Shown here in pieces: positions 60,758-63,985 of a stretch of 64,000 bases of DNA (position 1 is the stretch's first letter; each line of letters starts with the position of its first letter). The stretch is from a virus. Its lineage: Duplodnaviria > Caudoviricetes. Where the stretch lies: positions 188,527-252,526 of IMG/VR virus record IMGVR_UViG_3300033069_001378; one strand, 5' to 3'. The position numbers and the translations under genes are program-made. The notes under the pieces were generated by a model. That model had not been told where the DNA came from, did no database searches, and was given only the letters and a program-made list of their open reading frames with translations.

Positions 60758-60793
60758 TGTTTTGTTGTCTCCTTAAGCATAAGTATGGAAACG

Positions 60794-60824
60794 AAAAAGC
60801 CGACACGGAATCGTGTCGGCTTTT
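60794..60824 (-). terminator. intrinsic terminator of tRNA operon
   Basis: aaaagccgacacg-gaat-cgtgtcggctttt perfect hairpin. Confidence 0.85.
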
Positions 60825-60831
60825 CTTGTTT

Positions 60832-60854
60832 TGGAGCGGGTAGCGGGATTCGAA
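60832..60854 (-). repeat. displaced 3' fragment of tRNA-Gly (T54-U73 plus CCA); direct repeat of 61614-61633
   Basis: TTCGAATCCCGCTACCCGCT-CCA; 20-bp exact repeat. Confidence 0.95.
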
Positions 60855-61613
60855 AATGAAATTTGCATCATACTTAATTGTATGAAACCGCTTTTTACTG
60901 ATAGAGAATACCGCACAGCCAAATCTGGTGATATTTTACTGTGTGAATGTTATGTATGTCACTCGCACTTTGGCAAACAAAAAAGAGCGATTACAAAAGT
61001 TTACAACAAATCCGATTCAAACACTGGTCGATTCTGCTCTCAGAAATGCTTTGCGATATATAAGACCAAGCAATTTGCTACCAACTGCAAACAATGTAGT
61101 ACGCCAATTGTTAAAGCCGCGCGCGTAGCAAAAGACTCAAAGAGTGGAAACTTGTTCTGCTGTAGGTCTTGTAGTGTCACCTATAATAATAAAAACAAGA
61201 CTCATGGTACCAGAAGATCCAAGCTGGAAGCTTGGCTGGAATCGGAACTTGTAAGTTCATATCCAAACCTAGAGATTCACTTTAACAGGAAAGATACAAT
61301 CAACTCGGAACTTGATATCTTTATCCCTTCGCTTAAGCTGGCATTTGAGCTTAACGGTATTTTTCATTACGAGCCCATATTTGGCTCTGATAAGCTGACT
61401 CAAATTCAAAACAATGATTCTAGAAAATTTCAAGCTTGCTTAGCTGCAAGCATCGAATTTTGTATCATTGATACAAGTCAACAGAAATACTTTAAAGAGA
61501 AAAACTCTGCAAAATATTTGTCCATAATTCAGACAATTATAGACAATAAGTTGATTTTTAGCCGTGATAATCACGTTTCTAGTTCCGCCACGTAGAGGCA
61601 AATCAATGGAACC
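60855..61613 (+). mobile_element. endonuclease cassette inserted at tRNA-Gly 3' end
   Basis: 759 bp between 20-bp direct repeats; single ORF antisense to tRNA. Confidence 0.8.
60882..61595 (+). CDS. Zn-finger plus Vsr/DUF559-like PD-(D/E)XK endonuclease
   Basis: CxxC/FCSxxC repeats; SKLE, ELDIFIPSLKLAFELNGIFHY; start MKPLF at 60882. Confidence 0.8.
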   Translation: MKPLFTDREYRTAKSGDILLCECYVCHSHFGKQKRAITKVYNKSDSNTGRFCSQKCFAIYKTKQFATNCKQCSTPIVKAARVAKDSKSGNLFCCRSCSVTYNNKNKTHGTRRSKLEAWLESELVSSYPNLEIHFNRKDTINSELDIFIPSLKLAFELNGIFHYEPIFGSDKLTQIQNNDSRKFQACLAASIEFCIIDTSQQKYFKEKNSAKYLSIIQTIIDNKLIFSRDNHVSSSAT

Positions 61614-61684
61614 AGCGGGTAGCGGGATTCGAACCCACGATAACAACTTGGAAGGATGCTGTGTTACCACTACACCATACCCGC
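61614..61684 (-). tRNA. tRNA-Gly(TCC), no encoded CCA
   Basis: GCGGGTA/TACCCGC acceptor, CT-TCC-AA loop, GTGGG-TTCGAAT-CCCGC, U73. Confidence 0.92.
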
Positions 61685-61693
61685 ATGTTTTTG

Positions 61694-61903
61694 TTACTTG
61701 GAAAGTGGTCTGCTTAAAATCTCAAGCCTTACTTCTACAAGAAAGTCTTGGACCAAGATTTCCAAAAAAGTCTGTGACTTAAGCTCTGTTTCAAAGTCAA
61801 TTAAGCTTTGAAGATATCTTACTCTGTCTTGCTCGCTAGGTATTACCCCTAAACGAATCTGATTCACGGATGCGCAAATTTCTTCAAGTCTGTCAGGTGT
61901 CAT
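61694..61903 (-). CDS. small hypothetical protein between tRNAs
   Basis: MTPDRLEE..., 69 aa, purine-rich upstream. Confidence 0.45.
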   Translation of the reverse strand: MTPDRLEEICASVNQIRLGVIPSEQDRVRYLQSLIDFETELKSQTFLEILVQDFLVEVRLEILSRPLSK

Positions 61904-61975
61904 TTGTTTGTTCTCTTTCCAACAAAGAGTAAGTGTACGACAAGTTCTTGTTGGTGTCCATTTTTCTAAATGAGT

Positions 61976-62062
61976 TGGTGCGAATGGAGAGACTTGAACT
62001 CTCAAGCCCATTACAGGCAACAGCTTCTAAGGCTGTCGTGGTTGCCATTTCACCACATTCGC
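61976..62062 (-). tRNA. tRNA-Leu(TAG)
   Basis: ACAGC-CTTAGAA-GCTGT, long variable arm, ACCA end. Confidence 0.95.
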
Positions 62063-62068
62063 ATAATT

Positions 62069-62091
62069 TGGAGGAAGACAGACTAATCGAA
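62069..62091 (-). repeat. displaced 3' fragment of tRNA-Ser(CGA) (T54-N73 plus CCA); direct repeat of 62738-62757
   Basis: TTCGATTAGTCTGTCTTCCT-CCA; 20-bp repeat (21 with one adjacent matching base). Confidence 0.95.
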
Positions 62092-62737
62092 AATTCAGTT
62101 TCGATATATACTTATTGATATGCCTACCATATACACATTGCAATGTTCGTTTTGTTCTAAAGCTTTTCTACGAACTAAAAAAGATTTGAATAAATCAAAA
62201 AAACAAAATTCCAAAAATTCATACTGCACAAAATTATGCAAAAACTTGGCTTCTAACGCAAAAACAAAATATAAGTGTCATTTGTGCCAAAAAATGTTCG
62301 TTAGAAAAACGAGCTCGTCAAAAAACTCAAAATTAATTTTTTGCTCCAGGGCTTGCAATGCAAAGCATTATAACGCAAATAAACAATATGGAAACAGAAT
62401 TTCAAAGCTTGAAATTTGGTGCCAAAAAGAATTGGCAAAACAATACCAAAACTTAGAATTTCACTTCAATAGAAAAGACGCGATCAATTCAGAGCTTGAT
62501 ATCTACATTCCATCTCTCAAACTTGCGTTTGAGCTAAACGGGATTTTTCACTATGAACCTATATTTGGCAAATTGCAATTGAGCAAAATTCAAAACAATG
62601 ATTCTAGAAAATTTCAAGCTTGTATAGAGCGTAGTATTTCACTTTGCATTATCGACACATCATCTCAAAAATATTTTAAAGAAGCTTCATCTAAAAAATA
62701 TTTAGACATTATCACCAATTTAATTGATGAGAAATTC
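62092..62737 (+). mobile_element. endonuclease cassette inserted at tRNA-Ser(CGA) 3' end
   Basis: 646 bp, AT-rich, between direct repeats. Confidence 0.8.
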
Positions 62738-62752
62738 AGGAAGACAGACTAA
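62120..62752 (+). CDS. Zn-finger plus Vsr/DUF559-like PD-(D/E)XK endonuclease (paralog)
   Basis: 69/87 identical residues to the 60882 ORF in the catalytic domain; stop codon lies within the tRNA repeat. Confidence 0.8.
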   Translation: MPTIYTLQCSFCSKAFLRTKKDLNKSKKQNSKNSYCTKLCKNLASNAKTKYKCHLCQKMFVRKTSSSKNSKLIFCSRACNAKHYNANKQYGNRISKLEIWCQKELAKQYQNLEFHFNRKDAINSELDIYIPSLKLAFELNGIFHYEPIFGKLQLSKIQNNDSRKFQACIERSISLCIIDTSSQKYFKEASSKKYLDIITNLIDEKFRKTD

Positions 62753-62827
62753 TCGAAAGCCAACCGTTTATTAGACGATCCATCCGTTTTCGAGACGGCG
62801 GCAGCGAACCTTGCTGCTTTATCTTCC
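62738..62827 (-). tRNA. tRNA-Ser(CGA), no encoded CCA
   Basis: GGAAGAT/GTCTTCC acceptor, CCGT-CTCGAAA-ACGG, long variable arm. Confidence 0.85.
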
Positions 62828-63091: not shown

Positions 63092-63164
63092 TGGAGGGGT
63101 GTATTAGAATCAAACTAATCTCAACCTGATTTGCAGTCAGATGCTCTCTCAGAGAGAACACCCC
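63092..63164 (-). tRNA. tRNA-Cys(GCA), non-canonical fold
   Basis: GGGGTGT/ACACCCC, CT-GCA-AA loop, U73-CCA; tiny D loop. Confidence 0.85.
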
Positions 63165-63171
63165 AAAAAAT

Positions 63172-63267
63172 TGGCAGAGAGCACAGGTTCCGACCCTGAT
63201 ACCTAGCCTTATGGTAGGCACAATCTGTTTAGCAAACAGTTCCGATCGCCATCACGGTTTACTCTCT
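63172..63267 (-). tRNA. tRNA-Ser(GCT)
   Basis: CTGT-TTGCTAA-ACAG, long variable arm, GCCA; T loop GTCGGAA. Confidence 0.85.
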
Positions 63268-63985
63268 ATAATATTTGAAATCACCCTTAAGATAATTTCT
63301 TAAATTCCACTGTATACCAAGAATATGATCTGTAACAATTCCATCTTGATACCTGATCGTTCTTCTCTTATCGCCTCTCATTCCGCTACCTACTTGGTTT
63401 TTCCTGTCCAACGATAGACTCTTGTTGTTCTTTTCGTTTTCTATGGAAACCAGCTTTGCTTTAAGCTGTTCGATAGCAGTCATCTTGTTTTGATACTGAG
63501 AGCGTCCGTTTTCGGATCTAACCGCAAGTCCTGTTGGGATATGCGTTACTTGCACAGCGGTTTCTGTTTTGTTTCTATGCTGACCGCCAGCACCAGAACC
63601 TCTGCATGTTTTGATCTCTAAATCTTTGGAGTATTCATTTAAGTCAGAATACGGTCCATTATCTTTTTCTTCTTGTCTTTCAGAGTCAGAAGCAAATACA
63701 GCTACAGTAATTGTGCTTGTATGAACCCTTCCTCTTTTCTCGGTTGGTGGCACTCTTTGTATTCTGTGACCACCGGACTCATTTCCAAATAACTCTTGCA
63801 AAAGAGCGTCTTTTCCTTTTACTTGAAAGACAATGAATCCTTCTGATTTCTCTGTGATTTCGATCTTAGTATCCGGGTCAAAGTCCGTGCAAAGCGCAAC
63901 GCTTGACATACATTCTGAATTGGTCTTCGACCAATAGCTTAGAATCCATTCCACCTTCTGCTGATCTAATCTCGATAATCATCAT
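63259..63985 (-). CDS. short class-I peptide chain release factor (PxT, GGQ), expressed via +1 frameshift, ~241 aa
   Basis: AGGAGA SD at 63993-63998; MMIIEIRSAEGG...RMY in frame 0 up to CTT TGA C; ESGGHRIQRVPPTEKRGRVHTS, GAGGQHRNKT, RSQYQNK in +1 frame. Confidence 0.9.
63877..63883 (-). promoter_or_regulatory. prfB-type +1 frameshift site CTT-TGA-C
   Basis: Codon 35 CTT, then in-frame TGA and C; +1 frame continues the RF domain. Confidence 0.8.

Follow-up and report, generated by a model that had tools for sequence, protein, structure and literature searches.

Two Cassettes in a Phage tRNA Cluster

The last 64,000 nucleotides of a 252.5-kb virus record (IMGVR_UViG_3300033069_001378; Duplodnaviria, Caudoviricetes; estimated completeness 66%), referred to here as the window, contain a tRNA gene cluster in which tRNA-Gly(TCC) and tRNA-Ser(CGA) are each followed, directly after position 73 (N73), by a small cassette bearing an antisense gene for a putative nuclease (Table 1). 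Positions 54-73 of the tRNA itself (the near copy) and a duplicate of them across the cassette (the far copy) form identical 20-mers at both sites. The repeat at tRNA-Ser is formally 21 nt long, as position 53 matches too, and each 20-mer is found exactly twice across the record. The six other tRNAs of the cluster within the window encode CCA; neither invaded tRNA encodes it directly after N73. An analysis based on the sequence alone (the original prediction) had described two inserts of 759 and 646 bp lying antisense behind N73, with a CCA after each far copy and the ATG 27-28 nt away from the repeat. The inserts were found exactly as described, the CCA is present at both sites, and the ATG lies 27 nt (cassette 1) or 28 nt (cassette 2) from the repeat.

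We consider it likely, with a probability of about 0.85, that these are selfish, homing-type nuclease cassettes equipped with a neutralizing ribozyme, which occupy tRNA 3' ends of giant phages. As read from the sequence, the full form on the tRNA strand consists of N73, a predicted ribozyme resembling that of hepatitis delta virus (HDV), an antisense nuclease gene with its own putative promoter, an AAA-N6-T-TTCR end, a copy of positions 58-73, and CCA. Sequence comparison shows the architecture of the element, the fixity of its ends, its spread among diverged phages, and the existence both of empty alleles and of relics devoid of the open reading frame (ORF).

An assembly artefact, the most obvious trivial explanation for such repeats, is ruled out because all four repeat junctions are bridged by contigs of a separate study (X2) and both cassettes were recovered in two independent assemblies (L490 and L491). 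Reads contained no joint skipping a cassette, a result that carries no weight as evidence. In X2, two alleles are present at about equal depth over the end of ORF1 and the ribozyme (61451-61599), one of them being that of a diverged relative; from this region it is concluded that recombination is ongoing in the X2 population.

Table 1. Features of the two cassettes and the adjoining tRNA genes (window coordinates).
Position	Strand	Feature	Basis or remark
60795-60824	.	Terminator-like hairpin ending the tRNA operon, just past cassette 1	Fold of 60788-60834, z -6.45; equivalent hairpin in relatives
60832-60834	-	Displaced original CCA of tRNA-Gly, behind the far copy	
60835-60854	-	Far copy of tRNA-Gly 54-73, with 58-73 taken from the target and 54-57 probably a T-loop mimic belonging to the cassette	Identical to 61614-61633; in L491 only 60850-60854 common with the window
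60855-60881	+	Cassette 1 left end: A-N6-TTT motif adjoining the T-loop copy; TACTTA at 60871-60876, candidate phage promoter	End profile
60882-61595	+	ORF1, 237 aa: two predicted FCS/TRASH-type Zn fingers and a Vsr/EDxHD-fold nuclease	Invariant residues in text
61551-61613	-	Predicted HDV-like (theta-type) ribozyme; G1 directly follows N73; C at 61561 predicted to be catalytic; antisense overlap with the ORF1 end	RF02682 and structural parse
61614-61684	-	tRNA-Gly(TCC), complete as far as N73 but without an encoded CCA; near copy 61614-61633	T-stem swapped with compensatory changes in L490, L491, and X2
61976-62062	-	tRNA-Leu(TAG), uninvaded, CCA encoded	
62069-62091	-	Far copy of tRNA-Ser 54-73 (62072-62091) and displaced CCA (62069-62071)	Identical to 62738-62757; in the empty allele of L481, N73 is followed immediately by CCA
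62092-62119	+	Cassette 2 left end: junction-spanning short palindrome TCGAAA-N6-TTTCGA; TACTTA at 62109-62114	Read from sequence
62120-62752	+	ORF2, 210 aa, of the ORF1 family; stop codon inside the near repeat	No ribozyme
62738-62827	-	tRNA-Ser(CGA), complete as far as N73 but without an encoded CCA; near copy 62738-62757	Missed by default ARAGORN, called at relaxed score, folds as a cloverleaf

A Predicted Ribozyme Is Part of the Full Element

Cassette 1 had been regarded as a single-ORF element; it does hold one ORF, but the original prediction overlooked the HDV-like ribozyme that is also present. The 63-nt predicted ribozyme begins at 61613 on the minus strand, directly after N73 of tRNA-Gly, and gives a full P1/P1.1/P2/P3/P4 parse, the sole such parse in this genome. 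Its match to Rfam family RF02682 (E 0.0015, 33 bits) does not reach the gathering score of 44, RF02682 scores running at 33-38 bits. Parsing succeeded in 37 copies (the window and 36 homologs); 1,830 random starts yielded no parse. In 34 of the 37, the first ribozyme base immediately follows N73 (offset 0). P1.1 is paired in 35 of 37 copies, in five covarying types, without being required by the parser, and with any base permitted at the first position of J4/2, 35 of 36 readable copies have the catalytic C there. In L486, changes in P1 are compensatory. Because an HDV-like ribozyme is found at N73 in at least 42 of 109 tRNA-adjacent nuclease copies, the term nuclease-only, under which the element was first described, does not fit its full form. 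Cassette 2 has no ribozyme by structural parse and thereby shows that the ribozyme is dispensable.

Ribozyme-bearing copies involve 15 isotypes and 21 different tetramers at positions 70-73, with at least 18 isotype changes on a quick tree, which argues that the N73 junction forms without microhomology. The ribozyme most likely frees the tRNA at N73, and healing of the tRNA and addition of CCA would rely on host or uncharacterized phage enzymes. RNA ligases of family PF09414 are present in the genome; the 66%-complete record yielded neither a CCA-adding enzyme (PF01743) nor RtcB.

Ribozymes also persist where the nuclease is missing. Among 41 tRNA-adjacent ribozymes with enough flank that were recovered by a motif search, the nuclease is still present in 11. 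Two internally deleted copies keep the duplication, L362 (173 bp, 20/20) and L378 (201 bp, 18/20, with a clear remnant of the N-terminal ORF), and L486 carries, at a different tRNA-Gly, the same ribozyme (55/64 identical) and no ORF, followed two bases behind the ribozyme by a far copy and CCA. A second HDV-like ribozyme of L486, which is a relative of this phage, lies behind a CCA-less tRNA-Tyr (L486:1180-1251). The same ribozyme type was also observed directly after the 3' end of tmRNA genes called by ARAGORN, with no nuclease nearby (L376:5871, L448:3724, L400:6525, L416:785). Nuclease copies L029, L195, L134, L147, and L272 lie at tRNA-like ends not called as tRNA; for the targets of the first four, tmRNA identity could not be confirmed.

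The Nuclease Protein

ORF1 and ORF2 are 51% identical over 207 aa. The earlier description of a shared catalytic domain with diverged Zn-finger N-termini was borne out, as the best 87-aa window has 69 identities (79%) and the N-terminal 110 aa are 25% identical. The N-terminal half is Cys-rich, with FCS/TRASH-type Zn fingers (zf-FCS was matched by 21 of 48 members), and in the C-terminal half E116, E143, D145, E156, N158, G159, and H162 are invariant in 48 homologs. A structure model of ORF1 (pLDDT 91) matches, over residues ~95-225, the catalytic domain of I-Bth0305I (3r3p; Z 9.9, rmsd 3.1 over 98 residues), a match tied with that to 3hrl, and Vsr (1cw0; Z 9.6). Given this tie, the Vsr-like catalytic fold is shared without being specific to the EDxHD family. 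The D145-H162 spacing of 17 equals that of D196-H213 in I-Bth0305I, and E116, D145, and H162 may supply E, D, and H of the E-D-x-H-D residues; H+9 is not occupied by Asp, while E164 is invariant and D179 almost so. Nuclease activity is predicted from the fold. NUMOD families are absent among the top Pfam matches of the nuclease family, and the predicted DNA-binding domain places the cassette nuclease outside the EDxHD family.

A PDB sequence search and Foldseek gave no match at E <= 0.001, and a homodimer prediction (score 0.01) gave no verdict and was not used. The Vsr fold is the sole enzyme-like domain in the cassettes, in which no DDE, HUH, Cas1, or serine/tyrosine catalytic domain and, within the 210-237 aa ORFs, no reverse transcriptase (RT) domain was found. 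Both protein halves are under purifying selection, the faster-evolving N-terminus (pN/pS 0.33 vs 0.19) in all 11 scorable pairs, and positive selection on the Zn fingers was not seen in these pairs; the proposal that the element is retargeted through its Zn fingers is therefore unsupported. The wider protein family comprises 4,496 clusters at E <= 0.001, distant relatives included; 50,697 phage records gave no match that would identify a cultured carrier. A different Vsr/DUF559-like nuclease of 252 aa is encoded at record positions 123974-124732, outside the window, in the orientation of the tRNA strand and upstream of the other tRNA cluster.

Homologous Insertions Share Fixed Ends

Enough flanking sequence was available for 171 of 192 non-redundant homolog loci, and among these a tRNA lies directly behind the ORF stop in antisense at 125 and in sense at 10. 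Positions 54-73 of that tRNA are matched upstream of the ORF at >= 18/20 in 20 of the 125 antisense loci, compared to 1 of ~2,480 null trials using the tRNA end of another locus, and tRNA-derived repeats thus recur in the flanks of homologs. Twenty-nine near-fresh copies with near-perfect duplication, a set filtered on positions 58-73 in which tRNA-like ends are pooled, have fixed ends, as a match is seen at position 53 in one copy and at position 74 in three. In many other copies near and far copies differ because the near tRNA is exchanged by recombination. About half of all copies are older, with the ribozyme gone and the far copy diverged or lost. A fresh copy targeting a CUA suppressor tRNA (L028:2671-2743) was observed, as was a GOLLD-like RNA, below its gathering score, near another homolog (L021:616-1020).

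The left end is marked by the AAA-N6-T motif beside TTCRA. TAYTTA is found in 41 of 64 left ends (11.2 expected) and is likely to be a promoter because ORFs of this phage are likewise enriched for it in their upstream regions (36 vs 12). The cassette ends, one a ribozyme and the other an AT-rich motif, lack terminal inverted repeats, and the absence of integrase, transposase, and RT from the cassettes, noted at the outset, held. The 66%-complete record itself contains no PF00589 match and no RT, and among 31 carrier phage records, 16 of them >= 90% complete, a single one gave a convincing RVT_1 match. The phage behind L115 is the only tested carrier with a clear RT.

Homologs also lie antisense inside cyanobacterial arrays of 23-26 tRNA genes (L285, L288, L292-L302, and L305; Kamptonema, Microcoleus, Nostoc, Tolypothrix, and other contigs), full-length at tRNA-Leu in L285 and without the Zn-finger half beside tRNA-His in ~10 genomes. 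In these cyanobacterial tRNA arrays, which the large family has reached, its members are possibly domesticated or still spreading the array.

Empty Alleles and Exchange Between Phages

Two syntenic relatives, L481 and L483, are empty at both tRNA-Ser(CGA) and tRNA-Gly(TCC). These empty alleles were located via the protein collection only. An exact search of IMG/VR for the empty Ser junction gave no match, and neither in-silico empty alleles compared with the homolog loci nor a flanking-gene search in IMG/VR uncovered any. Together with the homolog repeats, the empty alleles support the central proposal of the original prediction, a minimal, integrase-free family of mobile elements that targets tRNAs of different isotypes with position-fixed ends.

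L490, which shares 99.7% identity with the window, has retained the far Gly copy, while its near tRNA has five compensatory T-stem changes, from which it follows that near tRNAs are swapped by recombination and far copies stay. The changes fall in a tract of differences (61539-61636) whose alleles are also present in the L491-type relative. In L491 itself, identity to the window is 72% in the flanking genes, 90-100% in both cassettes and the upstream cluster, and 100% from far position 58 through the left end; its far copy equals positions 54-73 of the empty tRNA-Gly allele of L481, and its whole near tRNA is donor-like. Co-conversion was therefore one-sided, ending at far position 58, and the identity pattern is that of lateral transfer, with one side joined precisely at the T-loop and the other by homology. 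The sisters L115 and L220 (dS 0.8-1.2) match at 20/20, in each case to the copy's own tRNA variant. Simple decay of far copies in mid-sequence was considered and dropped, as identity at positions 70-73 (0.46-0.85 vs 0.24-0.38) is better explained by the ends of other same-isotype alleles.

The duplication was originally described as exactly tRNA positions 54-73, which is correct for the sequence at both sites, but positions 54-57 of the far copy are apparently supplied by the cassette. Far copies at targets with a TGCAA loop (L029, L195) begin with TT, the near and far copies of L270 differ at 55-57 only, and position 58 is mismatched in none of the 29 near-fresh copies. The target-derived repeat is thus probably 58-73, the cassette end supplying a TTCR mimic of T54-R57. 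The motifs TTxR (54-57) and CxAA (74-77) form a pseudo-palindrome around 16 nt, and the far flanks are enriched for C74-x-A76-A77 (16/29 vs 37% background, p 0.035). I-Bth0305I recognizes the half-sites TTxG/CxAA with a 6-nt spacer (PMC3239194); this parallel may be taken as a lead and not as a result.

How the Cassette Might Move

Staggered nicking followed by DNA copying with phage enzymes is the favored route, to which we give about an even chance. The Zn-finger/Vsr-fold nuclease would bind the stretch from the T-arm to CCA of an empty tRNA gene and would make two nicks, one at 73/74 in the tRNA-sense strand and one in the opposite strand within the T-loop (~57/58). Both resulting 3' overhangs (58-73) could anneal to the two copies flanking the donor cassette, or to short microhomology next to it, and serve as primers from which the recombination and replication enzymes of the phage copy DNA, such that each move would rebuild the duplication from the recipient and destroy both halves of the site. 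Repair of the upstream end by ordinary homology would carry the donor tRNA along and leave near and far copies different, as in L491, where the upstream end would have been resected. Once inserted, the ribozyme would cut the transcript at N73, so that the tRNA can still mature and the insertion is nearly harmless. This route would account for ends that are fixed with no microhomology at N73, for a repeat that is renewed in diverged sisters (L115, L220), and for ribozyme-free movement. Staggered cleavage and repair, as originally proposed, hence continues to be the best mechanism, although it is inferred only.

Several considerations weigh against the interpretation given above. The homolog loci are mutually related and were picked by similarity rank, so that counts are not of independent events, and the phylogenetic trees, obtained by quick searches, have long branches. 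The surplus of mismatches seen at 54-57 (12 of 29 near-fresh copies, p 0.007) is inflated by the filter on 58-73 and by the decayed L015, and at 8 of 23 without L015 it is only suggestive. The nick positions at 73/74 and ~57/58 are deduced, and the 2-nt 5' overhangs left by I-Bth0305I are unlike the proposed 16-nt 3' overhangs. Finally, perfect duplications could also arise if donor and recipient carry an identical tRNA allele.

Ordinary homing of the SegB type, which we regard as unlikely though deserving attention, would begin with a single double-strand break in the T-loop; the upstream end would copy the donor tRNA end, ribozyme, and ORF, and the downstream end would join at TTCRA microhomology. 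Perfect repeats would then require identical donor and recipient tRNAs, and new isotypes would be reached by rare illegitimate recombination and selection. L491 fits such a process exactly, as well as it fits staggered nicks. Furthermore, a match of >= 17/20 to another real tRNA end was obtained for 19 of 46 diverged far copies (null 13/920), 11 of the 19 being of the same isotype, and SegB recognizes the conserved T-arm motif (PMC2330249). However, ordinary homing offers no reason for the exact N73 junction at 15 isotypes with 21 acceptor ends; junctions at C74-A76 should be tolerated too, yet 34 of 37 lie at offset 0, and a jump between isotypes would first yield a broken chimeric tRNA.

It is rather improbable that the cassette is an RT-less retro-element resembling R2 or SIDE, in which the ribozyme would set the RNA 5' end, the nuclease would nick the target, and a host or phage enzyme would copy the RNA by target-primed reverse transcription. 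The geometry and the one-sided co-conversion agree with such a life cycle, an antisense ORF would keep its promoter inside the RNA, the fresh ribozyme-less copies (cassette 2, L047, L252) resemble 5'-truncated insertions, and internally deleted copies (L362 and L378) exist. Arguing against it are the near-absence of RTs among the carrier records, the lack of any RT match in this 66%-complete record, the lack of any partly truncated ribozyme or remnant among 43 ribozyme-less copies, and the existence of a group without ribozymes (SH-aLRT 88, weak) that occupies Ser, Asp, Gly, and His.

T-loops are classic core sites of integrases, and the left-end inverted motif with its 6-bp spacer in cassette 2 would suit a tyrosine recombinase acting in trans to integrate an excised circle by T-loop crossover, a possibility raised in the original prediction. 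It is very improbable, as the 66%-complete record has no PF00589 match, the conserved nuclease would be left without a role, and the crossover would place donor 59-73 on recipient 1-58, while the near tRNAs are self-consistent and that of L491 is wholly donor-like. Equally hard to credit is a non-mobile origin, either as an assembly artefact or as a domesticated phage gene, acting for example against co-infecting phages, beside a tRNA-processing ribozyme: purifying selection on the ORF and the proposed benefit of theta ribozymes as tRNA processors (PMC10879173) speak for it, but empty alleles, scattered targets, exact duplications, bridging contigs, and near-identical cassettes in phages with flanking genes 28% diverged argue against it.

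Neighboring Features of the tRNA Cluster

Between tRNA-Leu and tRNA-Gly lies a 288-bp segment (61687-61974) with a small minus-strand ORF, where relatives have a 23-nt spacer instead. The genes for tRNA-Cys and tRNA-Ser(GCT) (63092-63267, minus strand) have non-standard T-loops and were missed by default ARAGORN. A phage-encoded homolog of class I peptide release factors (63259-63954, minus strand) lies directly upstream of the tRNA cluster; its orthologs in L486 and L491 match PF00472 and PF03462.

Significance and Relation to Known Systems

The components of the cassette, namely theta ribozymes, homing nucleases that cut in the T-arm such as SegB, and the EDxHD fold, are already known. A literature search, mostly outside subscription journals, found no published description of the ribozyme-nuclease composite; the original prediction, too, knew of no described nuclease-only element making position-exact tRNA duplications at different isotypes. 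We tentatively suggest, at somewhat less than even odds, that the cassettes represent a mobile class without an integrase, transposase, or RT of its own, in which a small nuclease makes a long staggered cut set by tRNA geometry (T-loop and CCA), the target duplication is renewed, jumps occur between isotypes and tmRNA-like ends, the ribozyme neutralizes the insertion, and many stand-alone theta ribozymes are relics. If the long staggered cut is real, a protein of 210-240 aa would suffice for site-specific, duplication-forming insertion at a universal site without an integrase, a new mobility route. The cassette might also help to explain the origin of many tRNA-adjacent HDV-like (theta) ribozymes in phages, stages of nuclease loss being illustrated by L362, L378, and L486.

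Kienbeck et al. (2024; PMC10879173) regarded theta ribozymes, mostly those of gut phages, as processors of phage tRNAs, and the words "endonuclease" and "duplicat" occur nowhere in the main text of that study. The ribozymes described here share with them the HDV-like fold, a cleavage site at the tRNA 3' end, CCA-less phage tRNAs of many isotypes, including the CUA suppressor (L028), and PF09414 ligases. They differ in forming one end of a nuclease cassette, in a J1/2 of 1-4 nt, and in the presence of P4.

SegB of phage T4 is a GIY-YIG enzyme that leaves mostly 2-nt 3' overhangs and drives inheritance of the tRNA region (PMC2330249). Like the cassette genes, it lies among phage tRNA genes and targets a conserved T-arm motif; unlike SegB, the cassette has a Vsr-type fold, an antisense position at N73, and a fixed duplication at many isotypes, and the SegB abstract mentions neither a duplication nor a ribozyme. 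I-Bth0305I is encoded in an intron, carries NUMOD/HTH motifs, and leaves 2-nt 5' overhangs on cutting a site with a 6-bp spacing (PMC3239194). Its likeness to the cassette protein lies in a Vsr-like C-terminal domain, the D-to-H spacing, an N-terminal DNA-binding region, and half-sites resembling T54-G57 and C74-A77. The cassette protein has Zn fingers in place of NUMOD/HTH motifs, and its second Asp is not at the same spacing.

R2 elements combine an HDV-like ribozyme with Zn fingers and a restriction-like nuclease, and work on the role of that ribozyme is among the references of PMC10879173. These non-LTR (long terminal repeat) retrotransposons resemble the cassette in having such a ribozyme at the element end in a structural RNA gene, Zn fingers with a nuclease of the PD-(D/E)XK superfamily, and short internally deleted copies. 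The cassette differs from R2 in lacking an RT domain, in the antisense orientation of its ORF relative to the ribozyme, in its residence in a prokaryotic virus, and in its size of 0.65-0.8 kb; it is neither an R2 element, an insertion sequence, nor an integrative element. In group I introns with homing endonucleases and in IStrons (PMC4227781), a ribozyme likewise neutralizes the insertion and an enzyme spreads it, whereas the cassette would self-cleave at the end of the gene, with no splicing and no transposase. The element thus offers a prokaryotic-virus parallel both to R2 elements and to intron/endonuclease pairs, in which cleavage replaces splicing.

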